Below are positions 1,009 through 37,089 of a stretch of 54,191 nt of DNA, piece by piece; position 1 is the first letter of the stretch; every line of letters begins with the position of its first letter. The DNA is from an uncultured Eubacteriales bacterium. Lineage in GTDB: Bacteria; Acidobacteriota; Aminicenantia; Aminicenantales; Aminicenantaceae. The translations under genes and the position numbers were made by a program. Where the stretch lies: positions 1-54,191 of the forward strand of contig CAZOJY010000007.1 of the NCBI GenBank assembly GCA_964580235.1, in the 5' to 3' direction. The notes under the pieces were generated by a model, which was not told where the DNA came from, did no database searches, and saw only the letters and a program-made list of their open reading frames with translations.

Positions 1009-2745
1009 TTGATTCACGAATACGATGTGGTCATTATAGGAGCCGGAGGTGCTGGGCTGTATTCGGCCTTAGAGGCCAGCAAAAAGGCAAAAACAGCAGT
1101 CATCTCAAAACTCTACCCGATTCGCTCTCACACGGGTGCAGCCCAAGGGGGAATCGGTGCGGCCCTCGGGAACGTAGAAGAGGATAAACCGGAATGGCAT
1201 GCCTTTGACACTGTCAAAGGCGGGGACTATCTCACGGACCAAAAAGCAGCCTGTCTATTAGCCGAAGAGGCTGTTCAAGCTGTGTATGATCTAGAAAACC
1301 GGGGCCTCCCTTTCAGTCGCACACCAGAAGGGCGAATCGACCAGAGGCGTTTTGGAGGACATACCCGAAATTTCGGGGAAGCCCCAGTCCGCAGAGCCTG
1401 CTATGCGGCAGATCGGACTGGCCATATGATCCTACAAACCCTCTATCAGCAATGCATTAAAAACAATGTGTCCTTTTTTGACGAATTTCATGTCATAGAT
1501 GTTTTAATCGAAGGGCACAAATGTGCTGGACTTATTGTTATCGAACTGGCCACCGGTGAACTCCACATCTTCAGAGCCAAAGCTGTGCTGTTTGCTACTG
1601 GAGGCTTTGGACGTATGTTTCGGATAACCTCCAATGCCCATGCGAATACCGGCGACGGGCCAGCTCTGGTTGCTCGAAGGAATGTTCCTCTGGAAGACAT
1701 GGAGTTCTTTCAGTTTCATCCGACAGGTATCCGAAACATGGGAATCCTAATCACAGAAGGAGTTCGGGGTGAAGGCGGCATATTGAGAAACAATAAAAAT
1801 GAACAGTTCATGGAACGCTATGCTCCCAAACTCCTGGACCTGGCTCCCCGTGATATGATTGCCCGCGCCATCGTCACAGAAATCCGGGCTGGACATGGAA
1901 TCAAAGGGGATGCATCCATTAATGATTATGTGTATCTGGATGCCACTCACTTGGGAAAAGCTGTTATCGAAGCAAAGCTGCCAGAAATCGCAGACTTTTC
2001 CCGCACATACTTGGGGATCGACCCAGCAGACAATCCCATGCCCGTCCACCCCACAGCTCATTATGCCATGGGCGGAATTCCCACTGACGTGCATGGAAGG
2101 GTGTTAGCCGACGGTTCTGGAAGACTTTATGAGGGTTTGTATGCCGCCGGAGAATGTGCCTGCGTTTCTGTCCACGGAGCAAACCGCTTGGGCACAAACA
2201 GTCTTGTGGATTTAATCGTTTTCGGCCGCCGGGCTGGACTTCACATCGCCAATTTTGTAAAAAATGCTGATTTTATTTCCGTTCCAAAAAACGCCGCGGA
2301 ATCGGCACAAAAAATATTGGATCGACTTTTGGATGGAAAACATGGTCCGCAACCAGGCATGATAAGAAAAACCATGCAGGACCTGATGATGCAAAACATC
2401 GGGATTTACCGGAATAGCAAAGAGATGGCCGAAACTGTTCAAAAACTGGGAGAGCTGCGGCAGGAATACAAAGAAGTCAGGGTGAAAGATCACAACAAAT
2501 CTTTTAACACAAATCTTCTCGATATCCTGGAACTTGGAAATCTCCTGGACCTTGCTTATATTACAGCCGCGTGTGCCCTTAACCGCACCGAAAGCCGGGG
2601 TGCACACGCCCGAGAAGATTACCCTCAGAGGGATGACGCAAACTGGCTAAAGCATACTTTTGCGTGGTTGATAGAGGATAGAGTGGAGATTGACTATTCG
2701 CCAGTGGATGTGTCTGTGTGGGAGCCAAAGCCAAGAAAATATTAG
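1009..2745 (+). CDS. sdhA: Succinate dehydrogenase/fumarate reductase flavoprotein subunit
   Basis: GAGGAG FAD motif, SHTGAAQGG (covalent-FAD His), [35 protein letters not shown]; followed by an Fe-S subunit. Confidence 0.95.
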
Positions 2746-2757
2746 TGAAGGAATCCG

Positions 2758-3486
2758 ATGAAAATTCATCTCGACATTCAGCGTTTTAATCCTGAAAAAG
2801 ATAAGGAGCCGACTTTCCAGAAATACGAAGTTGAGGTCAATCCAACAGACCGCTTGCTGGATGCCTTGATGAAAATAAAAAATGGCGAAGACCCCACACT
2901 GGGATTTCGCAAAAGCTGTGCTCATGGTGTCTGCGGCTCGGATGCAATGGTTATAAACGGAAAAGAGGGGCTAGCTTGCAAGACATTGATCAAGGATGCT
3001 GTCGATAAAGATGGAGCCACTGTAAAAGTGCAACCTCTCCGAACCTTACCAGTCCAACGAGATCTGATGGTGAATCAATCCTCTTTTTTCCAAAATTACC
3101 GGCAGGTGAAACCTTATCAAATCAATCCCGCCCAGGTCCAAGAAAAAGAAAGGATTCAAACCCCTGAGAAAAGAAAACAATTCGATGATGCCACCAGGTG
3201 CATTCTTTGCGCAGCCTGCTTTTCAGCCTGTCCGGTCAAGCAGGAGGTGAATCCGAATTTCCTCGGACCAGCAGCAATCGTGCAAGCCTCCCGTTTTATC
3301 GAAGATGACCGGGACAAAGGAATCGAAGAGAGACTTCCCAGCTTGGACTATCCCGACGGCATATGGCCCTGCGAAAACCGATTCGAATGCACCCGTGTGT
3401 GCCCGCGAAAGATCAAAGTAACAAAACTGATCAATCTCATCAAAAGAAAAATCACTGAATTCCGAAAAGACAGGGGAAAAACATGA
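2758..3486 (+). CDS. sdhB: Succinate dehydrogenase/fumarate reductase iron-sulfur subunit
   Basis: SCAHGVCGSDAM..C [2Fe-2S], CILCAACFSACP [4Fe-4S], CENRFECTRVCP [3Fe-4S]. Confidence 0.95.
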   Translation: MKIHLDIQRFNPEKDKEPTFQKYEVEVNPTDRLLDALMKIKNGEDPTLGFRKSCAHGVCGSDAMVINGKEGLACKTLIKDAVDKDGATVKVQPLRTLPVQRDLMVNQSSFFQNYRQVKPYQINPAQVQEKERIQTPEKRKQFDDATRCILCAACFSACPVKQEVNPNFLGPAAIVQASRFIEDDRDKGIEERLPSLDYPDGIWPCENRFECTRVCPRKIKVTKLINLIKRKITEFRKDRGKT

Positions 3487-3579
3487 TCATGGCGTTAAAG
3501 ATCCGAATTAGAGCGGAGGACATCTCTGATGGCAAAGAAACACATTGAAAATTGCACAGAAAGAGAATTAGCTGTCAGC

Positions 3580-5085
3580 TTATTTCTTGAGTGCCGATTT
3601 TAGTGCAATAGAATCCTTCATTTCCTGCAAATTTTTGGTCAGATTCCACCATCCGTTTTTGAACGCGGCATAATCCGGCCCCATCATGGCTGATGCATAC
3701 CGCACAGAATTGGCATAAAACAGCCACTGTGACATCCATTTCTGTTCAATGTTCTCATCAAAGAGATTAGACTGATCTGCCAACCCATTTTTCCACGCTT
3801 GAAGCATCAATTTTGTTGCCGCTTCCACCATCCGGTCCGCCTCCTTTAGAGTGAACTCAAATTTTTCGAAATGGCCGCTGACCAAGCTGGGACCGTGGCA
3901 GGCAGAACAGACTTTAGACATCTTTTGCTTTCGACTTTCTTGCGCTTCTTCTGTCAGTAAAAATTCTTCAGCTGCTTCTCCCGAAAAAGTTGTGGGCAAA
4001 GGAAGCCCATCCTTATTTTTAATCACGAAGGTCTGACCACTTTTTGGCTGGGGATGGGAATAAATCAGACCGAATATTCTGACCCATAGTCTGGCTCCGA
4101 AGTCATGACTTCGCTCGGCGACAACATCGCCCTCCGTGTTTACCAGAAGACTGTTGTGGCAGGCCGCACAAGTGGGTGCTGTGAAATCCTTTCCGATAAC
4201 CCAAGGGATGTGGTTCCAATCCCACTCCGTACTTTTTGCATGAAATATATTGCCGTGCTTGCTCTCTCTATACACATTCCAGGCGGGAACATCAGGCTCC
4301 AAATGGCATTGGGAGCACGTGCCGGGCTTCCGGGCAATTTCGATGGAAAAACTGTGTCTGGGATGACAGGCCGTACACGCACCGGCTGTCCCATCCGGAT
4401 TGATCCGTCCTACACCATGATTCGGCCAGTTGGACAGATCAGGCACTTCGATCTCTCCAAGCTCAGTCTCCAACGTGCGTAAACCTCTGACTTGCACCTG
4501 AGTGCCATGACAAGCATAGCAGGTCTCGGCTTTAGCCGCCGGCGAAGAGTCGCGCTGCAAGACGCTCCCCTCCCGGACGTCTTTGACACTTGTAATAGTC
4601 TCAACAAGAGTATGGTAAACGGGGTTCTTTTTGAGGTTGAAATAGGCGTTTGCTTTTTTGCTGGGGAGATACTGTTTTACCTCATCTAGATGGCACGTCG
4701 CACAGTCCTTTGGAGATACAACCAGATTGATTCGGTAATCAAAATGTTCAAAATTATCCTTATGGTTTTGGGCGTTCAGGCTGTGGCACTCATAACATCC
4801 AACCGCATTAGTCCTCAGGTTATCCGGAACAGATGGACTTGATACTTCCCTTTCCAAAGCCGGCTTCTTCATCGATTCCGCAGGTATTCCATGTGCATGC
4901 GCGCTCGTCATCCAGTCCTCGACAATGCCTGGAGTATAGACACGGTGGCACTCCAAACATTCCTCAGTTTGTTCACTCAAAGAAGGTAAGGATTCGGTGG
5001 CCTCCTGTGTGGCAACTTTCCCCCAAAACATGAGAACGAACAGAAAAATCAGAGAAAGATGAACGACCAAGATTTTTCTCTTCAT
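3580..5085 (-). CDS. Octaheme cytochrome c, hydroxylamine oxidoreductase (HAO)-like family, exported
   Basis: Signal peptide; eight CxxCH motifs (CLECH, CYECH, CATCH, CYACH, CTACH, CSQCH, CAACH, CSACH); C-terminal helical part with MGPDY..GW. Confidence 0.85.
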   Translation of the reverse strand: MKRKILVVHLSLIFLFVLMFWGKVATQEATESLPSLSEQTEECLECHRVYTPGIVEDWMTSAHAHGIPAESMKKPALEREVSSPSVPDNLRTNAVGCYECHSLNAQNHKDNFEHFDYRINLVVSPKDCATCHLDEVKQYLPSKKANAYFNLKKNPVYHTLVETITSVKDVREGSVLQRDSSPAAKAETCYACHGTQVQVRGLRTLETELGEIEVPDLSNWPNHGVGRINPDGTAGACTACHPRHSFSIEIARKPGTCSQCHLEPDVPAWNVYRESKHGNIFHAKSTEWDWNHIPWVIGKDFTAPTCAACHNSLLVNTEGDVVAERSHDFGARLWVRIFGLIYSHPQPKSGQTFVIKNKDGLPLPTTFSGEAAEEFLLTEEAQESRKQKMSKVCSACHGPSLVSGHFEKFEFTLKEADRMVEAATKLMLQAWKNGLADQSNLFDENIEQKWMSQWLFYANSVRYASAMMGPDYAAFKNGWWNLTKNLQEMKDSIALKSALKK

Positions 5086-5126
5086 CGGGAACTCAAAGCC
5101 TTACGGTCTGAATTATGGACATACAT
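5082..5126 (-). CDS. Putative 14-aa leader ORF (MYVHNSDRKALSSR) whose stop overlaps the octaheme start codon
   Basis: GGAAGGAGG SD before ATG 5126; TGA 5084-5082 overlaps ATG 5085 (ATGA); the octaheme ATG has no SD of its own. Confidence 0.35.
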   Translation of the reverse strand: MYVHNSDRKALSSR

Positions 5127-5200
5127 CGTTACCTCCTTCCATTCGCTTTTACCACATGAAAGGAAGAAGGTCAAAACAAATACACGGGCTAAAAAGACGT

Positions 5201-8200
5201 TTAGAATCCCGGCATGATCGTGAACTGGAACACCCAGTTTTTGTTTGGCCTGTTGAAAGGCTTCACAGCATTAAATCCCATAATCAGGTATCCAAACAGA
5301 TTCATCCGGAGTCCGATGCCAGCACTTGTTAAAGGTTTGCGATTGCCACCCAAAAAAAATGGTTTATTTTCTGTGTCACCCTCAATTTCATATCCCCAAG
5401 CAATCCCGGCATCATAGAAGGCCACAAAATCCAACGGGAGAATGCCATAATATCCCCTGCCCAAACCGAGAACCCCAAATAGAGGAAATCGGAGTTCTAC
5501 ATTGGCGACGGCCATCTTGCTGCCGAATAGCTGCGCATAAACATCATTTTCGCTAAAACCAAAAGAAGATGAATTGTATCCCCTAAGCAGAGTTTCATAG
5601 CCTAAAAACAAGGGATAAAAACGGCTGTCTGTGGCATTATTGCCATAACGGCCATAATGCATAATGCGGAAAGCCAAAGTAAACGGCCGCACGGGCATGA
5701 AGTACCGTCGGTAATCTGCAAGAATCGAGGAAAAATTCAAATTGCCGCCAAAATAGGGCGTAAATTCGAGACGATAGCTCTGCCCCAGGATAGGTGCTGT
5801 GGCTCCGAAGAACGAGCTGTCATACACATAAGCTGCCGTGAAAAATCCGTAATACAGACTTTCCGGAGCATCCAATTCCTGTTTGTATTCATCCATAAAA
5901 AATCCCTCAACTGTATAAGCACGGGTGCGAACTTCTTGCTGGTAATCGATTAGCCGGTAGCCCGCTGACAGCTCGAACCGGCGGGATTGATTAAAAGGAT
6001 AAAAGGCAAAAATCGAGGCTTGATAATTGACCTGGCGAAAAATAAATTCTTCCTCGAGGAGAGCCACCTGGCCGAAGAAATCCCCGTATCCCACCGAATA
6101 TCCTCCGTACACATAAGGTATCCGCTGTACAACAGCTCCCCAATTCAATCTGCTCTTGGTATTTTGATATCCGGCTAAAAGGGCTGAATCCTCAACTCGG
6201 CTGTTTATCTGAGCCATGGTGAACACATTATGATAGCCAAGCATGTCGCTGAAGTTCAGCGTAATTCCGCCCCCTGCGTAGGTCCCAAACCGGTCTGTGC
6301 CTACGGCCATCTGAGCAGGGCTGACATAATCCAGAGCCAGCTTGGGCTTGTAATCCGAAACTTCAAAATCAGATTCTTCAGGCAATCCGTACATCGGATT
6401 GTTGAGAAGGGCCAGAACCTCTCCCTCGCTCTTTTTTCTCGGGGGAAGCAAAGATGGCGAGATATCTCCGAAATCACCGTTAGGCTTTTCTCCGGATAGA
6501 AGTTCAAGAGAATCGATAACATAGATGCTGTAGTTATCCTCCTGGTAGACGCTGTAAGCCATTTGGCCGGTCTTTTGTGCGACGGATAAGGCAGGGCTCT
6601 CGGCCGTGATCCCGCTCACACCTGTGTAAAGATTGGTCACCTGTGAAATCTCCTCGCTGGCAAGATCGATTCTGTACACATCTGGTATGCCGCTGCGATC
6701 GGAAAGAAAAAACAGGCTTTTTGAATCAGGAGCCCATTGGGGATTGATATGATTCGCTCCGAGGAATCCATGAATCTGCTCGATCTCGCCCGAGCGGGGG
6801 TCCAGAAGGGCCATCTGAAAGTCCCCAATATTGAGGAGAGAAAGATCCGTCGAGAAACGGTCTGTAACAAAAGCAATGGTTCGGCCATCAGGAGACCAGG
6901 ATGGATAAAGGTCGGAAAATGGATCATCTGTGAGTTTTCTAAGTTCTTCCGTTTCCAGATCAAACAAATAAATGTCTGATAATCCGCCATCAAGGGCTGA
7001 AAAAGCGATAAAGCGCCCCTCGGGAGACCAAGTTGGATTCAGAATCTCTCCTAGGTGTCCGAAAATTATCTCCTTTTCCCTCTTCCCGGTATCTGCATTG
7101 ACAATCACAAGCACAGGCTCACCTTTGGTAATCGCGCCAAAAACAAAATGCCTTCCCTCTGAATCCCAGGAACCAGAGGATTTTATGAACTGTAAACTTT
7201 CAAAATGCGGATTTGCGGCCGTCTTTATCAGCTTTCGAATGGTCCTTCCTGTTTTTGCATCAGCCAAATACATATCGATCGAAAACAGATCCCGGCTGCT
7301 GAGATAAACGACTTTGCTCCCATCCGGGCTGAGCATCGGAGACACATTATACCTGTTCTCTTCAGTCCCTTTAAAAAGAGGACGGCTGCCTCTTTCGACA
7401 AGCTGTGTGTGTTTGGCAATGGGCTCATATGCCTCATTCATAGCCTGGTGCCATTGCTTTGTCAGTGCTTCGAAATTCACGTTCAGCACCTTTTTCATCG
7501 CGGATTCCAGCTCCCCTACCCGGCTAACCTGTTTCAGCAGGGAAGGGACAGCCTCATCCCCCCATTTCCCAGTGATATAAGCCCAGAGGGACTGACCATA
7601 TCTGTACGGAAAATACTTATAGGGATCATCGAGTTTTTTGATTGTCGGGAGTTCTTTCCTCTGAGTGACATCCCTCATCCACATAGCAGTGTTTGGGTCA
7701 ACCGAACCGATGGACAGATATTCGGCCAGCCCTTCGACAAACCACAACGGAATACGCGCAATCCCCGGGTTGGCTCCGCCATAGCTGGATTGTCCCTGCG
7801 AGGTCATATCATACTGGAATGCGTGGACAAGTTCGTGCCCGATCACACGATCCGTCGAATCCAGAGAGCCCGTGACTGGCAGGATAATCCGCCTCTTGAA
7901 TGACTCGGTCACACCTCCTGTCCCTTCTCCGATAAATCCGGGGATAGCGGCCGTCTGTTGAAAATCAGAAGAACTCGCATAAAGAATCAAAGGCTGACGC
8001 CCTTTGAGTTTATGATTGAGCAGACGTGACAGGCGGGCATGCCATCTTTCTGCCATCCGGGCGGCCTGTGTTGCCGCTTTTTCCATTTCAGGATAAAAAT
8101 AGACATCAAAGTGCTGTGTCTTCAAGATTTTAAAATCGAACTTGTCATACTGCACCTTATTCCGTCCAAAATACTGGGCATGAGCAACAGACGCTGTTGA

Positions 8201-12206: not shown

Positions 12207-14872
12207 CTGTGAATTTTTCCCCAAAGTTTGATGCCGCCAAAACTACCGGTGTCATCAAACGACCCCACGCCGACCAGCCCATGCCCCAGGCTAGCATCTG
12301 TGGCTGTTAAGATCGGGACTTTCATGTCGTCCAGATAGGCTCTGATTTCACCGGTCCCGGCATTGCAGGTGACCCTGAATTCATGAAATTTCATGTCGGT
12401 CAGACGAAAAACGGACTGTCCCGCCGGTTCGTGATTGATCTTCACTCGGTCTTTTCCATTCACGATGCCGATGATATTGTGGTTTTCATCGCTGACAGCC
12501 GAAAAGTGAACATAATAAAAGTGAGAGGGATCTTGATAATGGAAGACAACGACCATATCCCGATTTGGATTATCGAGAGGTGCGCTGCATTTGAGATACC
12601 CAGAAAAAAGAAAATCAGAAACATTAAAATTCTGCAGGACCGACCAGGAGGTAGGAGCTTTCACTTCTCCTTGAAGTCCAGGAACCAGGAGCTGGTAGCA
12701 CCGGCGCCCCATTTCTTCGCCGACCTTCCAGTTTTCCGGAACATTCGGCTCCCAGCCGTGAGCTTTCTCATCCTTAAAATTATCGCTTCCCAATGGAGGC
12801 CGGGCGGTTTCGACCAGCTTTTGGATGGCCGGCGCGATTTTGAGGACACATTCATATTCGGGCTTTTCCGGACGGCTCAAAACACCAAAGACTGCGTCCA
12901 GCCAGGAGAGTGGAGCTTCCTGTCCTTTTTCGATAAAATCCATGGCCCGGAGACCTGCCTCGGCCAAAACAGATACATCCTCTGAGAGCGGGATAATCTC
13001 TTTCAGCAAGGCTGACTCTTCGAGCACTGGCTTTAAAACATCATGGTTGTCCCGCCATATAGACAACCGATGCTGGATTATTTCTGTATTAGTTTTATAA
13101 TTTGGAGCATCATCCAGAAAGCCCTCCACCATATTCTCAAATTCCCGTGCCACATGACTTTCAGGACGGGCGGCATCCACCAGCCGGATCAAGGGTGTCA
13201 TTTGGGTATACTCGTACGTTCCTGGCCGCGTATAATATTTGACCGGCTCCACGATATCTGCCACATTTTTTAGCGCATCGATAGGATGTTCTCCTGCAAG
13301 TCTTTTTAACATAAGAGGATAATTGGCACGATGCTTCAACCCAAAGACATCCAGTCTCGGACCTAGATGTTCTAACCTACGATACATATCGTTCACATCG
13401 ATTAGGCCTTGAGGAGACCAGAACCTCTCAGCAATCGCCGCAGCTCTTGGCCAGATCCGTGAGTCAACGGTCTCGGGCCCGACAAACTCACCCCACATGC
13501 AGGCCTCTCCGCCCAAAATGCGGGATTTTTCCTTTTTTGTCAGGTCGGCCGCATCGCCACTAAGAGGATCCACATGATAATGATAGGCAGCAGACAGCAT
13601 ATGATCCAGATAATATCCGTTGGATAAAATTCCCAAGTAGCCCTCCCTGGCTGTCCTAGCCAAGGATTTTGTCCCGCGCCAGCTCTGCACAACCACATCT
13701 TTCGGCAGATCAGGATGGAAAATCTCATCCCACCCGATCATCTTTTTTCCATGTTTTTGAACGATTGTCAGAATTCTTTTGTTAAAATATGCCTGCAAGT
13801 CCTGGTTGTTTTTCAGGCCTTTCTGTTTTTTAAATGCCACAATATTTGGATTGCTGTTCCAGAGTTTACCGCTCACTTCGTCTCCACCGATGTGGAAATA
13901 GGCATCCGGAAAAAGTCCGGCCATCTCACCGATAAAAGTCTCCAGAAAAGCATAAACCTCTTCTCGGGTCGGGTCCATGCAGGGATCATGTACGCCCCAG
14001 TACCGCTCGATGGCAAAAGGTCCTGAACCGCTGGCTAACTCTGGATAACCAACAAACCAGGCAGTCGTGTGTCCGGGAATGTCAAACTCCGGAACAACCC
14101 GGATCCCAAGGTTCCGCGCATAATCCAGTATTTCCCGCACCTGTTCCTGCGTAAAATAGTGGCCGTCAGAACCCATTTCATGAAGTTTGGGAAAGCTTTT
14201 GCATTCCACCCGGAAACCTTGATCTTCGGAAAGATGCCAGTGCAGGACGTTCAATTTTACAGCAGCCATTCCATCCAGGTTTCGTTTGATCACTTCCACA
14301 GGTAGCCAGTGACGGCAGACATCGATCAACAATCCTCTCCAAGGAAATCGGGGCTTATCCTGTATCCTGACAGCCGGCATATAAAGACCTTCAGCATCCT
14401 TTTCTATGAGCTGGAAGAGCGTTGCAAGGCCTCTTAAAATACCAACTGGGGTTGGTGCTTTTAGCACGGCCCGAGATGAACTCACATGAAGGGAGTAGGA
14501 TTCATCTTCTTTTACTGACTGGACCTCTTCCCCCGGGTCATAGCATTGTATCTTGAGAAGAGGTGACGCGGCACCTGAATCCAGTTCTCGAATTGGCACA
14601 CGGAGGATTCCGGCCAGATCCTGCATATGCCGATTGAAACGCTTGACAGCTCGCAAAAGACGCAATTCTTTGTGTCCTTTCCAGGTCACACGGAATCCAT
14701 ATGTTATGCGGAGCTTTCCAGATTCAACAGATATTTCTGCGGGCCAGGGCATCAACTGAAACCGGGAAAAATCTTTGTCAGATTTTTGTTTGCCCTGACA
14801 AAACATCATGAACAAGGTTACAAAAAATACAAAAAAGAGAATTGATCGCGGCTCTTTTAATTTCATCATCAT
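12203..14872 (-). CDS. Beta-N-acetylhexosaminidase (GH20) with an extra C-terminal beta-sandwich domain
   Basis: RGLLIDVCRH, LHWHL, PEFDIPGH, catalytic HIGGDEV, GGEACMWGE, WPRAAAIAE; export signal; about 190 extra C-terminal residues. Confidence 0.93.
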   Translation of the reverse strand: MMMKLKEPRSILFFVFFVTLFMMFCQGKQKSDKDFSRFQLMPWPAEISVESGKLRITYGFRVTWKGHKELRLLRAVKRFNRHMQDLAGILRVPIRELDSGAASPLLKIQCYDPGEEVQSVKEDESYSLHVSSSRAVLKAPTPVGILRGLATLFQLIEKDAEGLYMPAVRIQDKPRFPWRGLLIDVCRHWLPVEVIKRNLDGMAAVKLNVLHWHLSEDQGFRVECKSFPKLHEMGSDGHYFTQEQVREILDYARNLGIRVVPEFDIPGHTTAWFVGYPELASGSGPFAIERYWGVHDPCMDPTREEVYAFLETFIGEMAGLFPDAYFHIGGDEVSGKLWNSNPNIVAFKKQKGLKNNQDLQAYFNKRILTIVQKHGKKMIGWDEIFHPDLPKDVVVQSWRGTKSLARTAREGYLGILSNGYYLDHMLSAAYHYHVDPLSGDAADLTKKEKSRILGGEACMWGEFVGPETVDSRIWPRAAAIAERFWSPQGLIDVNDMYRRLEHLGPRLDVFGLKHRANYPLMLKRLAGEHPIDALKNVADIVEPVKYYTRPGTYEYTQMTPLIRLVDAARPESHVAREFENMVEGFLDDAPNYKTNTEIIQHRLSIWRDNHDVLKPVLEESALLKEIIPLSEDVSVLAEAGLRAMDFIEKGQEAPLSWLDAVFGVLSRPEKPEYECVLKIAPAIQKLVETARPPLGSDNFKDEKAHGWEPNVPENWKVGEEMGRRCYQLLVPGLQGEVKAPTSWSVLQNFNVSDFLFSGYLKCSAPLDNPNRDMVVVFHYQDPSHFYYVHFSAVSDENHNIIGIVNGKDRVKINHEPAGQSVFRLTDMKFHEFRVTCNAGTGEIRAYLDDMKVPILTATDASLGHGLVGVGSFDDTGSFGGIKLWGKIHR

Positions 14873-16059
14873 CTCGGTTTCCTTGCTGAATTTTTTCCCA
14901 ACTTCTTCTTTACAGATTTCCCCTTGAAAATGGTGTCCAGCACCTGGAATTCTTGATCAAAAACAGCAACATTAGCGAGCTTGCCCTTTTGGATGCTTCC
15001 AATTTTATTTTCCAAACCGAGAATGCGCGCAGGATTTAAAGAAGCCATATTTATGGCTTGGTTTATCGTCACATCAGTCCAATCGATCATGTTTTTTACG
15101 GCTCTAATCAGGGTCAAAACACTTCCGGCCAAAACTCCGCTTCTGCGGATTGCTGCTTTGTTGTTCTTGACTTCTATTTCATTGTCACCCCAATGATAAA
15201 CACCATTCCCCACTCCTGAGGCCATTATCGAGTCAGTCACCAGACAAATATTTTTCGTTCCTTTTTTAGCCACGGCCAGGCGTAAAGCTGCTGGATGCAC
15301 ATGGATGCCATCAGCGATAAGTTCAGCCATTATGTTTTCGGTATCCAGCACTGCCCCGACAACACCCGGTTCTCTGTGGTTAAACCCGCTCATCGCATTA
15401 AAAAGATGGGTGGCGAGGCTTACGCCTTTTTCGAAACTCTCCACCGCTTGATGGAAGTTTGCGTTGCTGTGTCCAATAGCCACTACAAAACCATTTTTGT
15501 TTAACAAAGGAATAAACCGCATGTTGTTTTCGACCTCAGGTGCCAGGGAGAGGATGGATTTTAGGCCCTGAGTGGATTCGACCAATCGTTCACAATCCAT
15601 TTCGGTAATTCCTCTGATAAAAGAAGCCTGATGGACACCTTTTTTATGCGGACTCAAAAAAGGACCCTCAATATAGATTCCCAGGAGTTCAGATGGAAAA
15701 AGATCCATATTGGCATGTTTAATTATGTTGACGGTTTCGAGAACTGAGTCCATGGGTGCAGATATCGTGGCCCCCAGAAATCCAGTGACCCCATTTTTTG
15801 CCTGGTATTCTGCGATCCTTCGCAAGCTCTTTTCCTGATTGTCCATCACATCTTTTCCCAGAGCCCCATGGAGATGAAGATCCACCAGCCCTGGAACGAT
15901 GTATGCTTCGCCATAATCGATGAACTTGATCCCCTCATTCTGGAATTGATCCTTGCGGGCAAAAACTCCCAAAATTCTTTCTCCTTCTGCAACCACATAA
16001 CCCCTCTGGAGGATATCATCCGGAAGGATGATGTTTCCTCTGAAAGCGGTTTTATGCAT
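14869..16059 (-). CDS. nagA: N-acetylglucosamine-6-phosphate deacetylase
   Basis: PGLVDLHLHG, EGPF, APE, GHSNA, THLFNAM, DGIHV, TD motifs. Confidence 0.95.
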   Translation of the reverse strand: MHKTAFRGNIILPDDILQRGYVVAEGERILGVFARKDQFQNEGIKFIDYGEAYIVPGLVDLHLHGALGKDVMDNQEKSLRRIAEYQAKNGVTGFLGATISAPMDSVLETVNIIKHANMDLFPSELLGIYIEGPFLSPHKKGVHQASFIRGITEMDCERLVESTQGLKSILSLAPEVENNMRFIPLLNKNGFVVAIGHSNANFHQAVESFEKGVSLATHLFNAMSGFNHREPGVVGAVLDTENIMAELIADGIHVHPAALRLAVAKKGTKNICLVTDSIMASGVGNGVYHWGDNEIEVKNNKAAIRRSGVLAGSVLTLIRAVKNMIDWTDVTINQAINMASLNPARILGLENKIGSIQKGKLANVAVFDQEFQVLDTIFKGKSVKKKLGKNSARKPR

Positions 16060-31886: not shown

Positions 31887-32552
31887 TTATATACTGAGGA
31901 GTTCTTCTCTCAACAGGGTGCAGTTATTGATCAAGACTCTATTTCCTTTAACCTCGATGAGGCCCTCCTCCTGCATCTGTTTTAAGTTGCGGGATAGGGT
32001 TTCGCTGATCGTCCCCAAAATTTTGGCCAGTTCTCCTTTTTTGATTTTTAATTCTACAAGACAATATTGATCACCCGAACAATAGGAAAGAAGATATCGG
32101 ATTAAACGCTGGCGCACCGTTCGGAGGCCCAGTGATTCGATCTTGTTGCTCAATACCACACACTTTCTGGCCAGAAGATGCACAAAATACACAGCAATGC
32201 GTGGATTTTTAGCTATCTCCTGGTTGATTTTTTTCTTAAGAAAAAAAAGGACGTCGGAATCAGTCAATGCTTGGGCAAAAACAGGGTATGTCTCTGAAGC
32301 AAAAACGATCGCTTCGCCCAAAAAACCTCCCGGGCCAAGGCGAGTCACTTCCGCTTCCCGTCCCTGTTCATCCATTTTGTAGACGCGGATTTCTCCTTTT
32401 TCCACATAATAAAATCCATCCGCTTCATCCTGAGCTGAGAATAATATCTCTCCTTTTTGAAACTTTTTAAGACGGCCCAGTGCGATCAACCCATCTGGAA
32501 TGGCCATCCCTTCATTTTTTTGTGTTTTTCCCTTTTCCATTTTCAGCTTCAT
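31887..32552 (-). CDS. Crp/Fnr family transcriptional regulator (HcpR/DNR-like)
   Basis: cNMP-binding-like domain (GFYYVEKGEIRVYK, GFLGEA); HTH LAKILGTISETLSR with the FNR-type E..SR recognition helix; no N-terminal FNR Cys cluster. Confidence 0.9.
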   Translation of the reverse strand: MKLKMEKGKTQKNEGMAIPDGLIALGRLKKFQKGEILFSAQDEADGFYYVEKGEIRVYKMDEQGREAEVTRLGPGGFLGEAIVFASETYPVFAQALTDSDVLFFLKKKINQEIAKNPRIAVYFVHLLARKCVVLSNKIESLGLRTVRQRLIRYLLSYCSGDQYCLVELKIKKGELAKILGTISETLSRNLKQMQEEGLIEVKGNRVLINNCTLLREELLSI

Positions 32553-32572: not shown

Positions 32573-33943
32573 TCATTCAACTAAGCTGTACAATTTTTCC
32601 CGCGATATCTCCAACGCCAGGTTAAATTCTCCGGCCAAAACTTGGGCAGCCACCGATGCGGCAAACTCCTTGGCTGTCTGGATGCCCATGATATGAAGCG
32701 CTTCCCTCCCAACCGGGGATATCAGGCCCTCCTGCGAAGACACCACTCCCGCCTCGATATTAGGCAACTCTACCCGGTAAACGATATCTCCCCGGTCTTT
32801 TTCTACAAAGATATTCTGAAAACAGGACACCAAAGGGCTGTAAGGATTGACCTTTGTGGCTTTATATATCGCAGGCAAAATCTCACCTCCCATACCGGAA
32901 TAGAAGGGACAGCCGAGCTTTTGGGATCCGATACGATCGACCTCCACAAAAGAAAGGAACTTTTCAGGATCGACTTTCAAGAATGTTTTAAAATCTGAGG
33001 CAGGCACCCTCACTTGAGCCGATGCTTTCCTGCCTCTCTTGTTTCGCGGGCTGGGCTTCAAATCCCCGTCATGTCCTTGGGCAATCACACTCAATTTATA
33101 AACGACATCCTGTGCCGATATTTTTTTTTCCACCTCTTGCTTGATGAAACCCACAGCACGGCTGATATCTCCATGTCCACGGAAGTTGGAAAATTCTGCC
33201 ACAAAGTCCACATAGAGGATAAATCCCCGCAGCGTCTCCGCATGATCAAAATCCACCGAACGGATTCGGCCGCCAAAATCTGACATCTTATCCTGCATTT
33301 TGACAGTCTCCTCTGGGAGAAATGCCTCGATAATATTCTGAGCCTCTGTGCGCTGTTCCTTTGTTTGGAAAATAAATCCCAAACAACGAACTGCCCGGGC
33401 AAATTCCGCCACTTTGACCTCTGCTCCACCCAATTTATTGATCAGATAACTCCCCCGGGTCACCCCGATCGGGCCCAGCCCTGTTCCGTACACCAGGAGG
33501 TTCGTGAATGTTTTGCGGACGTCGCCTGTGACAGCAATCTGTCCCGCATACGAAAAATAATCTTCTTGGCCGCCGACATAATTTGCGACAAGAGGGGCAA
33601 ACTGATCCAAGGACTTCAGCTCGGACGCACAGAGAGAACATGTGTGATTTTCATCACGAATATCCAGCTCCCAAACAAGATTTTCTTTTGCGCAGAGATA
33701 ACGAGTCTTGTAAGGCTTATCCGGAACATGAATAGAACGGAAGTTCTTCCCTGTTATTTCTTTGATAAAATGCTGACGGCACAGGGCTGCGATCCTGAAA
33801 TTTTCGGGAGGATCAATGCTAAAACTTGTTTCCAGCTCCTCCTCCACCTTCCAGGGAGCGAGAAGGTCTTCCCTCAATCTTTCGACACACGCGTGGATGA
33901 CTCTGCTTTCCGTGTCTTTTTCTCTTGCTGCCATCAAAAACAC
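32573..33943 (-). CDS. Divergent class I HMG-CoA-reductase-fold protein with catalytic motifs replaced and a Cys-rich N-terminus
   Basis: Collinear matches to HMGR motifs: TRGSYLINKLGGA, GDLKPSPRNKRGRKASAQVRVP, IGSQKLG, GDIVYRVELPNIEAGVV, VAAQVLAGEFNL; by-eye alignment only. Confidence 0.7.
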   Translation of the reverse strand: MFLMAAREKDTESRVIHACVERLREDLLAPWKVEEELETSFSIDPPENFRIAALCRQHFIKEITGKNFRSIHVPDKPYKTRYLCAKENLVWELDIRDENHTCSLCASELKSLDQFAPLVANYVGGQEDYFSYAGQIAVTGDVRKTFTNLLVYGTGLGPIGVTRGSYLINKLGGAEVKVAEFARAVRCLGFIFQTKEQRTEAQNIIEAFLPEETVKMQDKMSDFGGRIRSVDFDHAETLRGFILYVDFVAEFSNFRGHGDISRAVGFIKQEVEKKISAQDVVYKLSVIAQGHDGDLKPSPRNKRGRKASAQVRVPASDFKTFLKVDPEKFLSFVEVDRIGSQKLGCPFYSGMGGEILPAIYKATKVNPYSPLVSCFQNIFVEKDRGDIVYRVELPNIEAGVVSSQEGLISPVGREALHIMGIQTAKEFAASVAAQVLAGEFNLALEISREKLYSLVE

Positions 33944-33960: not shown

Positions 33961-35694
33961 TCAATACCGCCAGCTGGTTAGATCCGCTCCTGCCGGGGCT
34001 GTTTTTAGCATGCGGTCCACAAACTTTGGGATAAACATCTGATGGTAGCGGAGTCTGGAAATGGCATTGGGTTGGGTGTGATCCCCATTCCAGCAATGCT
34101 CGGCCCTATCCCCGTAATCCACTTCTCCGCTGTAATAAGGATTTGTTGTGCTTTCCAAGAATTCTTCAGTCAGATATACCGCATTGTTGAGGTAATAATT
34201 ATCCATGTCCCCGCAATAGATATGGATCTTACCCATAAGCCTGGGACCTAAAGTGGCCCAGTCTCTCTTCAAGATATAGCTGAGGTCGTAATTTTCTCGC
34301 CAGTACTCGGCCACTTCGTGATCGATTTCACCTGTCAGTTTATTCCAGATCGGCTTGGGATAACCATCCTCTCCCACCGGAGAATACACCGCCTGCCAGA
34401 TGTCCCACTGGTCTCCTGACCGGCCCTTTGTCGCGATGGCCAACTCTTTGTGGTTTGTATCTTCTAAGGTGCAGCTGATTTCTCCCAACCAGTTTCGTTT
34501 GCCAGGTCTGGGTGTTTTTTTGAAAAAGCTGTCGAGATAGTAGGCGTTTTTATCCTCATAAATGTTGACCAAACAGTATTGCCGAAAATCGATCGGATCA
34601 GGACAGGCCGCATAACATCCGTTATATTCGTCGGGATAAAAGACCTGGACACCCAGGGCTTCCCAACCTCCGGTGGATCCGCCGTAGAGAGTTCTGGCCC
34701 AGCCCTCCCCTATGCCGCGGAATTTTTCCTCGATGAAAGGGATCAGCTCATAAGTAATCGCATCCCCATAAGGTCCGAGATTAGCGGAATTGACAGCGTA
34801 GGAGTCGTCATAATAGGGGTTGGCGTGCTGAACCTCGATGATGATAACCCTTGGCGTTCCGGGTGCCGTCCACCACTTGTAAAACTTATAAGCAAATTCC
34901 TGTTGAGTCTTGTTGTAGCCCGGCCAATCAAAACGGTCGCTGTATTCGGGTTCGACATCAGGATCAGGGGGTTTCTCGCGGAATCCGCCAAAAGTGTAGG
35001 GAAAGTGGCCATGATTGATGACAAGAGGATAATGCGCATCGGGATGTTCGTCAAATCCTTCGGGTAAAAGGATGCATGCACCCAGAAACATCGGACGTCC
35101 CCAGAATTCTGAGAGGAGTGTGCTCTGGATTTTTACGTGTTTGATGTACTTGGTATCCTTGGGTGGGAGGATCGGCGGGATTTCCTGGTCCAAAACAATC
35201 TGGATGGTTCTATCTTTTTGCGGATCGATGGACATTTTCTCCGGTGTGCTGTAAAAGTTGCCTGGCTTTCTGTTCCAGTGTTGACCTTCGCCTTTATCAG
35301 GCGGGACCTTTATGGTATGGCCATCCGAACGATGGAAGGTTTCATACCGGTTCAAAAATCCCTGCACCCAATAATCGCCAGGAGGAATCTCTGCAATGCT
35401 TTTCAAAGGATAACCAAAAGCGCTCCCTTCGATGACAGCAGTTTCCCCAGGTTTAAGTCCGTCCACGTCGACGCCGAATACGAGCTGCGTGTCTGGACCA
35501 TCACTGATCTGGAATCGAGGCTCTCGGCTGTCGTCCTTAGAAACCAACAACAACACACGACCATCTAACGGCTCTGCGCTCCGCTCCTCTGGAAAAGAAA
35601 ACCCGAAGGACAATTGGCTCTTTTGTGTGCTTCGATTCTGCTGACAGGCAAAAATCAAAAGAAATACACTCAACAGAATAAATAATTTTTTCAT
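33961..35694 (-). CDS. Esterase-like alpha/beta-hydrolase lipoprotein with an N-terminal extra domain
   Basis: Lipobox IFAC; GGSTGG elbow, GDMD acid, EHCW His; start at ATG 35694 with GGAGG SD. Confidence 0.75.
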   Translation of the reverse strand: MKKLFILLSVFLLIFACQQNRSTQKSQLSFGFSFPEERSAEPLDGRVLLLVSKDDSREPRFQISDGPDTQLVFGVDVDGLKPGETAVIEGSAFGYPLKSIAEIPPGDYWVQGFLNRYETFHRSDGHTIKVPPDKGEGQHWNRKPGNFYSTPEKMSIDPQKDRTIQIVLDQEIPPILPPKDTKYIKHVKIQSTLLSEFWGRPMFLGACILLPEGFDEHPDAHYPLVINHGHFPYTFGGFREKPPDPDVEPEYSDRFDWPGYNKTQQEFAYKFYKWWTAPGTPRVIIIEVQHANPYYDDSYAVNSANLGPYGDAITYELIPFIEEKFRGIGEGWARTLYGGSTGGWEALGVQVFYPDEYNGCYAACPDPIDFRQYCLVNIYEDKNAYYLDSFFKKTPRPGKRNWLGEISCTLEDTNHKELAIATKGRSGDQWDIWQAVYSPVGEDGYPKPIWNKLTGEIDHEVAEYWRENYDLSYILKRDWATLGPRLMGKIHIYCGDMDNYYLNNAVYLTEEFLESTTNPYYSGEVDYGDRAEHCWNGDHTQPNAISRLRYHQMFIPKFVDRMLKTAPAGADLTSWRY

Positions 35695-35860
35695 GCTTTT
35701 TCCCTCCAATGAACCTGAATTGTTGCCTTAAAAATGTCGATGCCAATCCACTGCCTTCCTGTTATCAAGGAAGAATATGAACGTACTTGCATCACAACTT
35801 CCAGCAATATCTGAATATTATCCTGAAATTGCTGCAAATGACAACAAAAACATTTTTGCG

Positions 35861-36045: not shown

Positions 36046-37089
36046 ATGAATCCCCTCAAAACCATCCATGCCATTGCTCCGATTCGGATCAACGACATCG
36101 GCGGCTGGACAGACACGTGGTTTGCACAGCATGGAAAAGTCCTCAACATGGCTGTTTTTCCGTTGGTGGAAGTTCGAATCAAAGTGCTAAAAAACAGGGG
36201 GAAATTCGACCAGCGAGTCCTGGTCCGATTAGAAAACTATGGAGAAGCTCTGTGGATAAATCCTGAAAAGCCAGCCTATGACCAACATCCCCTAATCCAA
36301 GGAGCCGTTAATGCTTTGACCATCCCTAAAGATGTGATGCTTCAGATTTCCCTTTTCTCCCATGTCCCCGCCGGAAGTTCTACCGGCACATCCGCCTCGG
36401 TTTGTGTGGCATTGTTGGGTGCGCTGAATTATATCTCTCATCATAATCATCCCATCCATGAGATTGCCTATTTAGCCCACCGTGTAGAAACAGAGAAACT
36501 CGGGCTGCAAAGCGGGATCCAAGACCAGATGGCCGCAGCCCATGGGGGTATCTGTTTTATCGACATGCACAAATATCCAGAAGCTATTGTCACAAAATTG
36601 GATCTCGAGGAACATCTCCTTGAGGAACTGGGCCGGCGAATATCTTTGGTCTATCTAGGACAGTCCCACAGTTCATCTGCCATGCATAAAGAAGTCATCA
36701 CATTTCTTGAAAAAAAAGGGGCTCAATTCACCATAATTCAGGCGCTGCGAAATTTGGCTGACCGGGCAAAAAATCATTTGCTTGGGGGAGATCTTGAAGC
36801 CTTTGGCGAGGTGATGATCCAAAACAATGAGTGCCAGAGATCTTTGCATGCAGGACTCATATCAGAGGAGGCGGATTCCATCATCCGTATTGCCAAAAAA
36901 TACAAGGCAGCCGGCTGGAAGGTGAATGGGGCAGGTGGAAAAGGAGGATCTTTGACAATACTGGGCAATCAGGAAGAAAAATGGCGCGAGGGGATGCTCG
37001 GAGAGATAAATTCTCTGGGAAAGGGAATCCGGTCAATCCCGATCTCCCTTGCAAGATTTGGGGTAACGGTTCAGGAAGAATATCCGTAG
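36046..37089 (+). CDS. GHMP-family sugar kinase (HddA/fucokinase-like)
   Basis: APIRINDIGGWTD, PAGSSTGTSAS, GIQDQMAAAHGG, WKVNGAGGKGG. Confidence 0.85.
   Translation: MNPLKTIHAIAPIRINDIGGWTDTWFAQHGKVLNMAVFPLVEVRIKVLKNRGKFDQRVLVRLENYGEALWINPEKPAYDQHPLIQGAVNALTIPKDVMLQISLFSHVPAGSSTGTSASVCVALLGALNYISHHNHPIHEIAYLAHRVETEKLGLQSGIQDQMAAAHGGICFIDMHKYPEAIVTKLDLEEHLLEELGRRISLVYLGQSHSSSAMHKEVITFLEKKGAQFTIIQALRNLADRAKNHLLGGDLEAFGEVMIQNNECQRSLHAGLISEEADSIIRIAKKYKAAGWKVNGAGGKGGSLTILGNQEEKWREGMLGEINSLGKGIRSIPISLARFGVTVQEEYP

Follow-up and report, generated by a model that had tools for sequence, protein, structure and literature searches.

Class I hydroxymethylglutaryl-coenzyme A (HMG-CoA) reductase (HMGR; EC 1.1.1.34) builds its active sites from two subunits and relies on four catalytic residues, Glu559, Lys691, Asp767 and His866 (PMC7503714). 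HMGR is the enzyme targeted by statins, and the main survey of its evolution distinguishes types I and II only; in the literature surveyed, both types catalyse the same reaction. Here we describe a protein encoded at 32573..33943 on the minus strand of a 54,191-nucleotide stretch of DNA (hereafter the window), which comprises positions 1 to 54,191 of contig CAZOJY010000007.1 (assembly GCA_964580235.1) from an uncultured Eubacteriales bacterium of Aminicenantaceae lineage. An earlier note, made from the letters and translations alone, had read this protein as having the HMGR fold with a completely rewired active site, outside the mevalonate pathway. Compared with class I HMGR, the protein has the same three-domain architecture, but the catalytic tetrad, the NADPH motifs and the C-terminal flap are gone, an extra 40-residue insert resembling a zinc ribbon is present, and mevalonate genes were not found nearby in bacteria. 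Together with distant relatives in DPANN archaea, it seems to form a non-reductase branch of the HMGR superfamily that is apparently undescribed.

Fold and active-site positions of the protein

The open reading frame (ORF) has 456 codons when counted from a GTG at 33943. An in-frame ATG at 33934 shortens the product by three residues to 453 amino acids, in agreement with the gene-caller protein (P0001) and with the N-termini of homologues, and is most likely the true start, giving a coding sequence at 32573..33934; all features of the gene given below lie on the same minus strand. The protein passed the Pfam model HMG-CoA_red (PF00368; E = 1.2e-12, 48 bits against a gathering cut-off of 27) with a match over ORF residues 161-449 (32597..33463). 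A single-sequence phmmer search of the PDB returned no match and a family profile was needed: built from 17 members, it detected the archaeal class I HMGR 6HR7 (E = 1.8e-13) and, more weakly, human HMGR. The alignment to 6HR7 was collinear over 337 positions; the earlier note had put this at about 340 residues by eye. An AlphaFold2 model based on a 40-sequence alignment (mean pLDDT 91.4, pTM 0.91) gave the same picture, as its top 50 Foldseek matches were all class I HMGR structures, led by 6HR8 (E = 4e-23, TM 0.65/0.73), and its core superposed on human HMGR at ~4 Å over ~345 columns. The closest structures are 6HR7 and 6HR8 of Methanothermococcus thermolithotrophicus, followed by human 1DQ8 and 1HWI; class I HMGR is collinear over the whole length at an identity of about 18–22%. 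The protein thus has an HMGR fold and keeps the whole three-domain architecture. The class II model TIGR00532 (P. mevalonii type) gave no match at E ≤ 10, and the structural matches are to class I. As the score against the NCBIfam equivalog for NADPH-HMGR (TIGR00533) was far below its cut-off (50.4 against 441.8 bits), the protein is a homologue and not an orthologue of that enzyme.

Residues were read one by one in an alignment of 16 bacterial family members, 10 DPANN relatives and 26 canonical HMGRs, with the roles of HMGR residues in catalysis and in the HMG, CoA and NADPH subsites taken from PMC7503714. Conservation was scored in an alignment of 125 bacterial sequences with a threshold of at least 97% per position. 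The translation contains the motifs ANYVGG, GTGLG, TRGSYLINKLGGA, NFRGHG, QGHDGDLKPSPRNKRGR, IGSQKLG, YSGMGGE, KATKVN, PNIEAGVVSSQEG and AGEFNL; every motif quoted in the earlier note is present, and its list of substitutions proved correct column by column. The loss of the catalytic tetrad is shared by 122–125 of the 125 family members: Glu559 is replaced with Thr151, in a GTGLG that stands for TTEG (33473..33487), Lys691 with Leu292, and Asp767 with an invariant Asn363, in a KVNP that stands for GQD (32843..32854). His866 has no counterpart, since each of the 125 bacterial members terminates 1–6 residues past the invariant Tyr449. In the window protein, this tyrosine closes the C-terminal REKLY (32588..32602), the stop lies four residues on, and Asn870 and Arg871 are lost along with the rest of the flap.

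In the HMG subsite, only Asp690 (Asp291), Lys692 (Lys293) and Leu853 (Leu439) are retained, and Ser684, Lys735 and Asn755 have become Ala285, Asp333 and Glu351. The remodelled cis-loop, QGHDGDLKPSPRNKRGR (33029..33079), holds the kept Asp291 and Lys293 on either side of Leu292, together with a new Asp289 at the Cys688 position; it is the most conserved block of the protein (mean 0.95) and has a 3-residue deletion ahead of the RGR motif. Asp333 lies in EVD (32936..32944), is invariant and reverses the charge at the Lys735 position in the bacterial branch only; in HMGR, Lys735 is the salt-bridge residue for the HMG carboxylate (PMC7503714). In YSGMGGE (32882..32902), Met348 replaces His752 and the invariant Glu351 replaces Asn755, and both changes are common to the DPANN branch. 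On the NADPH side, DAMGMN is replaced with NFRGHG (33170..33187; Met655→Arg252, Met657→His254, Asn658→Gly255), in which Arg252, Gly253 and His254 are invariant or nearly so and the Gly-His pair is again common to the DPANN branch. The glycine-rich loop ..EVGTVGGG gives way to PNIEAGVVSSQEG (32726..32764), with GTVGGG reading GVVSSxEG and an invariant Glu402 at the Gly807 position.

The term 'completely rewired' goes too far, as Asp690, Lys692, Leu853, Arg590 (Arg183), Arg568 (Arg160) and, as far as the alignment shows, an aromatic residue at the CoA-adenine (Tyr479) position are kept; the last three were not remarked on in the earlier note. Also kept from class I HMGR are Asn697, the Arg702-Gly703 pair, the Gly of the DAMG motif and the Asn and Gly of the ENVIG dimer motif. 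The new pocket constellation, comprising Asp289, Asp291, Asp333, Glu351 and Glu402 with His254, Arg252 and Lys293, is far more acidic than that of HMGR. Judged by these residues, the known HMGR reductase mechanism would be impossible for this protein.

Although 111 of the 453 positions (24.5%) are at least 97% conserved overall, the equivalents of catalytic and HMG-pocket residues are so in nine cases out of nine (Fisher p = 2.5e-6). Within the NADPH site, the nicotinamide-side positions are invariant (Arg252, Gly253, His254, Gly255 and Glu402), whereas those on the adenosine 2'-phosphate side are variable (Met217, Ser218 and Gly221); the simplest reading is that dinucleotide binding was given up and the reaction centre was rebuilt under constraint. 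The dN/dS ratio was 0.10–0.15 between the window gene and four homologues and in three further pairs, with synonymous sites near saturation in all of them (one additional pair was saturated and left out). The gene is intact and under purifying selection and has full-length homologues, in line with the earlier view that it is not decaying. The pattern of conservation favours a functional pocket. The hydride-transfer machinery has been lost, and the interfacial pocket was rebuilt, not abandoned.

The N-domain helices (residues 1-61; 33752..33934) are collinear with the class I N-domain and contain an invariant Pro27-Trp28. Trp28 (125/125) falls at what we take to be the Tyr479 position, based on its alignment column and the human HMGR sequence, with the N-domain alignment being less certain than the rest. 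Among other CoA-site positions, that of Arg568 holds Arg or Lys (residue 160) in 124/125 sequences and that of Lys722 holds Lys320 in 96/125, and Gly157 and Thr159 occupy the positions of Ser565 and Asn567. In HMGR, Tyr479 stacks on the CoA adenine (PMC7503714).

Residues 74-114 (33593..33715) form the zinc-ribbon-like beta-hairpin insert of ~40 residues (pLDDT about 95), which is found neither in canonical HMGR nor in the DPANN branch. Cys81, Cys99 and Cys102 are invariant (125/125) with the spacing C81-x2-[D/H/E/C]84 and C99-x2-C102, and residue 84 is ligand-capable in 122/125 sequences (Asp in 85, His in 20, Glu in 12 and Cys in 5); one divergent member, P0123, has a full CxxC...CxxC. The insert resembles a zinc ribbon whose fourth ligand varies. 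The earlier proposal of Zn-binding cysteines is thus plausible for Cys81, Cys99 and Cys102 with residue 84, and does not extend to the 'CRQH' cysteine (C52), found in just 94/125 sequences. Cys184 and Cys342 are conserved just within the main Aminicenantes group.

Relatives and gene neighbourhoods in bacteria and DPANN archaea

A word-indexed search yielded 343 homologues, the best 120 of which are ~450 amino acids long and 60–80% identical. When 1.84 billion representatives were searched exhaustively with a profile, the family proper comprised just three full-length clusters at 50% identity (793, 481 and 481 bits), and the next matches scored ~100 bits. The 31 loci in GTDB species genomes come nearly all from metagenome-assembled genomes (MAGs) of Aminicenantes, Aminicenantales or Aminicenantaceae, the outliers being one KSB1 bin (52% identity) and one TA06 bin (49%); the bacterial family is essentially confined to Aminicenantes. 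Many loci (L015, L016, L019, L021, L024, L031, L033-L035, L040, L042 and L043) carry 'uncultured Eubacteriales bacterium' titles, yet have Aminicenantes-like gene content and synteny, and these titles look like generic placeholders. At 2 of 39 bacterial loci the family gene is disrupted, by a frameshift near residue 370 (L040 10001-11301) or by an internal rearrangement or deletion at residues about 220 to 245 (L043 4819-5772), which may reflect assembly errors or occasional pseudogenes. A further protein of 362 amino acids (P0154) corresponds to the bacterial family just in its central S-domain/cis-loop segment (…ARGHHAISKAVG…AQGYDGDLKPSPRNVRGR…), with unrelated sequence on both sides, and is probably a chimeric or frameshifted gene call.

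The relatives at ~100 bits carry the derived motifs DGDL[K/R]P, N.RGR, G-H and GM..E and lack every canonical HMGR motif. Those with a name are 'hypothetical proteins' of Micrarchaeaceae and Aenigmarchaeota (for example, MEM0201550.1 and MBI4015160.1, respectively), and a metagenome scan with the DPANN alignment found 2 loci only. In a neighbour-joining tree (Kimura distances, 377 columns, 100 bootstraps), the bacterial branch, the DPANN branch and the union of both, apart from canonical class I HMGRs, each received support of 100/100. Both branches share the derived states K691L, N755E, M657H, H752M, C688D, S684A and G807E as well as the 3-residue deletion. The tree is based on distances and could be affected by long-branch attraction; independently of it, this indel and the seven residues argue for a single origin of the rewired clade. 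The DPANN sister proteins thus have DGDL[K/R]P, Gly-His, GM..E, the Glu at the Gly807 position and the deletion in common with the bacterial family and have likewise lost all four catalytic residues, but they are only ~25% identical to it, lack the ribbon insert, have the Asp767 position deleted and extend further at the C-terminus, where Lys or Tyr lies close to the His866 position.

At 8/8 DPANN loci, the rewired gene is accompanied by genes for the beta and alpha subunits of a succinyl-CoA ligase-like (SCS-like) enzyme and by an HMG-CoA_red gene of ~415 amino acids (L009 5060-9733, L010 596-5570, L011 1587-6250, L012 312-4892, L044 3941-8588, L045 124-3204 (cut), L046 1756-6413 and L047 2114-6854). 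Seven of these loci run beta, alpha, rewired, canonical, and their stop and start codons abut or overlap, although one of them stops at the contig end before the canonical gene. At one Micrarchaeaceae locus the order is rewired, beta, alpha, canonical, and other mevalonate genes were not seen nearby. The HMGR next to the rewired gene is canonical in its motifs (ATTEG, AMGMN, CSDKKPA, GQD, EVGT.GGG and K[A/T]H; TIGR00533 403 bits); in those at L009 8480-9733, L010 4326-5570, L011 and L012, GAAMGMN stands in place of GDAMGMN (Asp653→Ala), with the other catalytic motifs intact. The SCS alpha subunit of the module passes its equivalog cut-off, whereas the beta subunit, which in SCS sets the acid specificity, fails (245 against 370). 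Several module loci lie inside or beside mevalonate-pathway genes, and the Aenigmarchaeota locus (L009) has the module within a complete mevalonate cluster (HMGCS, two mevalonate kinases, PMK, MDD, IDI2 and polyprenyl synthase). This cluster ends with a bacterial-type NAD-dependent glycerol-3-phosphate dehydrogenase (14465-15394; Pfam NAD_Gly3P_dh_N/C), which is unexpected beside archaeal lipid-precursor genes. No description of the four-gene module was found in the searchable literature.

None of the 34 non-redundant bacterial loci, the window among them, has the module, and neighbourhood clustering of these loci detected no universal neighbour, synteny being clade-specific. A tblastn search of 587 kb of bacterial flanks with HMGCS, MDD, kinases, IDI2, SCS alpha and beta and the DPANN canonical HMGR found no such genes; the only matches were weak ones between the canonical HMGR query and the family gene itself. 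The bacterial genes have no conserved partner. The earlier note's statement that the protein is not a mevalonate-pathway enzyme agrees with these flanks and is harder to uphold for the clade as a whole: as the DPANN sister branch is always adjacent to canonical HMGR, the origin of the clade, and perhaps its function, is tied to that pathway.

In the window, a predicted lipoprotein of 582 amino acids is encoded upstream in the same direction (33961..35709, minus strand; it ends 17-26 nt before the HMGR-like start), and a Crp/Fnr-family regulator follows downstream, also co-directional (31887..32552, minus strand; it starts 20 nt after the HMGR-like stop). The sole strong promoter-like site is upstream of the lipoprotein gene, and the lipoprotein, the cytoplasmic HMGR-like protein and the regulator are apparently co-transcribed. 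The lipoprotein has a signal peptide ending ...LIFAC and a weak, marginal match to esterases, and most of its homologues have no Pfam match. This arrangement is limited to close relatives, with the lipoprotein upstream at 7 loci and Crp/Fnr downstream at 6; neighbours in other bacterial clades include a beta-lactamase-family gene, a small secreted protein, a Fur-family regulator with a cytochrome c peroxidase, and thioredoxin-like genes. No riboswitch was found near the gene by Rfam searches of the window and six diverse loci, and PADLOC defence models gave no match.

Elsewhere in the window are genes for sulfatases, a GH20 hexosaminidase, peptidases, an Opp transporter, fumarate reductase and a multihaem cytochrome, with none for isoprenoid synthesis found among the encoded proteins; by this gene content, the remainder is an ordinary chromosomal fragment of an anaerobe that degrades sugars and peptides. 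Homologues with named sources assign the window to Aminicenantes. A GHMP-family kinase (36046..37089, plus strand) was considered as a mevalonate kinase and is unsupported in that role (86 bits against a cut-off of 163); its match to the heptose-7-phosphate kinase HddA is equally poor (89 bits, cut-off 600). It is in divergent orientation, ~2 kb from the HMGR-like gene, and the synteny is restricted to the closest clade. At 1009-5085, a fumarate reductase/succinate dehydrogenase flavoprotein and Fe-S subunit adjoin a multihaem c-type cytochrome. The KSB1 locus (L039) also has a fumarate reductase pair, ~8 kb from the family gene, a likeness that is probably coincidental, and group II intron RNA domains (RF02001, RF01998 and RF00029) at 4988-5683, ~4 kb upstream of that gene.

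Possible functions of the rewired protein

We tentatively favour, with somewhat less than even confidence, a functional, neofunctionalised paralogue of class I HMGR that is non-redox and probably an enzyme still binding CoA. Such a protein would act as a homo-oligomer, as HMGR does, and would bind the CoA moiety via Trp28 (Tyr479 position), Arg160 (Arg568 position) and, in most members, Lys320 (Lys722 position); because these positions appear to be kept, the nucleotide end of CoA is probably still bound. Use of NAD(P)H would have been abandoned, and the new carboxylate/His cluster would perform non-redox chemistry on a CoA-linked acid, such as CoA transfer, thioester cleavage or a metal-assisted reaction. 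The ribbon, with its three Cys and the Asp, His, Glu or Cys at the fourth position, would be a structural metal site or mediate an interaction. Homo-oligomerization, CoA binding, non-redox chemistry on a CoA-acid and a structural metal in the ribbon are a joint proposal from sequence, which as a whole is rather more apt to need revision than to stand.

That the DPANN sisters are encoded with an SCS-like pair and a true HMGR suggests that the ancestral setting was dicarboxylyl-CoA metabolism, of the succinyl-CoA or HMG-CoA type. These two compounds are closely analogous, and elsewhere a succinyl-CoA:HMG CoA-transferase reaction exists (EC 2.8.3.13). In a purely hypothetical scheme for the module, the SCS-like ligase would recharge the CoA donor, the rewired protein would transfer CoA and HMGR would reduce the product. 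The likeness to succinate–hydroxymethylglutarate CoA-transferase would be one of function, with no relationship in sequence or fold, and serves as a hypothesis on mechanism. Such chemistry would make sense of a module of SCS-like ligase, HMGR-fold protein and HMGR; CoA-transferases employ the carboxylate of a Glu or Asp in their active site, and the thioester position of the rewired pocket has acquired an invariant Glu and Asp. The bacterial substrate may differ, because Lys735 has become Asp, Glu559 has become Thr rather than Arg, and Arg568 is kept, unlike in the archaeal branch. A bolder version, which we consider a long shot, is a third functional class of the HMGR superfamily, namely an acyl-CoA enzyme that needs no cofactor or is assisted by a metal, such as a succinyl-CoA:hydroxy-acid CoA-transferase with Glu351 or Asp291 as acyl acceptor. 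With the SCS-like ligase and canonical HMGR, it would give DPANN a self-contained, ATP-driven module from a scavenged acid (such as 3-hydroxy-3-methylglutarate) to mevalonate; bacteria would have received the Aminicenantes branch, which bears the Zn-ribbon, by transfer, and there it would have adapted to a different CoA-linked acid.

Several points weigh against a CoA-dependent, non-redox enzyme. As there is no conserved bacterial neighbour, the link to acyl-CoA comes from archaeal relatives of only ~25% identity, and their pocket differs (Glu559→Arg instead of Thr, Lys735 retained and Arg568 lost). The acidic pocket and the reversal at Lys735 argue against old-style binding of an HMG-like terminal carboxylate, the new residues are placed in a cluster by aligning them with HMGR positions, and strict conservation of the pocket would suit a highly specific sensor equally well. 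A sensor of this kind would be a pseudoenzyme, that is, a non-catalytic ligand sensor or a regulatory or scaffold subunit, whose pocket binds CoA, acyl-CoA or a cation and signals to a partner: the adjacent canonical HMGR in DPANN, in a 'prozyme'-like heteromer, and in Aminicenantes another protein such as the co-transcribed Crp/Fnr regulator. All known catalytic residues are indeed gone, and in DPANN the genes for the rewired protein and the canonical HMGR touch or overlap, an arrangement expected if both were subunits of a single complex; such translationally coupled tandem genes fit a heteromer, which would form hybrid sites, since HMGR active sites are built from two subunits. Regulators are also found next to bacterial family genes (Crp/Fnr 20 nt downstream in the clade of the window and a divergent Fur-family gene in another), but these neighbours are clade-specific (6/34 loci for Crp/Fnr), and no canonical HMGR lies within the 587 kb of bacterial flanks. 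Prozymes such as those of trypanosomatid AdoMetDC and deoxyhypusine synthase are dead paralogues that partner an active enzyme. The rewired protein resembles them as a paralogue of a shared-interface enzyme that has lost its catalytic residues and, in DPANN, stands in tandem with the active paralogue, whereas in bacteria no active paralogue is near and, unlike in prozymes, the former active site bears the strongest constraint in the protein. This site is not relaxed (9/9 positions at least 97% conserved), and its new invariant acid and His residues, kept from bacteria to archaea at 25% identity, are more typical of catalysis. We regard a sensor or subunit as rather unlikely, although it is the main rival to an enzyme.

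The shift of the pocket from roughly neutral to strongly acidic, with Lys735 reversed and new Asp or Glu at the Cys688, Asn755 and Gly807 positions, would also suit an enzyme that depends on a metal and acts on something other than a CoA ester, for instance as a hydrolase or lyase for a phosphorylated or cationic compound, the HMGR scaffold having been recruited for unrelated chemistry. The divalent cation would be held by the DxD of Asp289 and Asp291 with Asp333, Glu351, Glu402 and His254; a DxD plus His/Glu arrangement is frequent in metal sites, and the loss of Lys735 and Lys691 disfavours a carboxylate substrate. However, the CoA-nucleotide positions appear to be kept (Trp28 in 125/125 and Arg/Lys160 in 124/125), and the archaeal sisters sit among two CoA-handling enzymes. 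We consider this explanation improbable. A protein that still reduces HMG-CoA or a related acyl-CoA with other catalytic residues, perhaps using NADH, would account for the fold, the overall pocket and the kept Asp690, Lys692, Leu853 and Arg590, and an acidic residue is occasionally seen at the Arg627 position, as in some NADH-preferring enzymes. Yet the four catalytic residues are all missing, other sequences stand in place of the nicotinamide-side motif and of the glycine-rich loop (where an invariant Glu occupies a Gly position), and the protein lacks the flap that in HMGR closes over NADPH. The adenosine-side NADP positions are free to vary, and the equivalog score is 50 against 442; in DPANN, a second reductase would be redundant, because canonical HMGR is next door. 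This is very unlikely. Decay or an annotation artefact, to which the lost catalytic residues and the two disrupted copies among 39 bacterial loci might point, is effectively refuted by conservation: ORFs are intact and full-length in more than 120 sequences at 60–80% identity, dN/dS is 0.10–0.15, 111/453 positions are at least 97% conserved and the AlphaFold2 model is confident (pLDDT 91).

Place in the HMGR superfamily

None of the curated NCBIfam and PADLOC models describes the rewired family, and no prior description of a rewired HMGR-like clade was found in the literature surveyed, an earlier description elsewhere being possible; to this extent, the earlier claim of an undescribed HMGR-fold family holds. 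No HMGR-fold member with another function was found in that literature either, and the clade would be the first evidence that this scaffold has been recruited for another purpose. Both a conserved non-reductase HMGR clade and an HMGR–SCS module would surprise isoprenoid enzymologists. A few homologues are already labelled 'hydroxymethylglutaryl-CoA reductase'. The family passes the Pfam HMG-CoA_red threshold, and a reductase label would wrongly credit Aminicenantes with a step of the mevalonate pathway. In archaea, the four-gene module would provide a testable handle on how genome-reduced DPANN obtain their isoprenoid lipid precursors.

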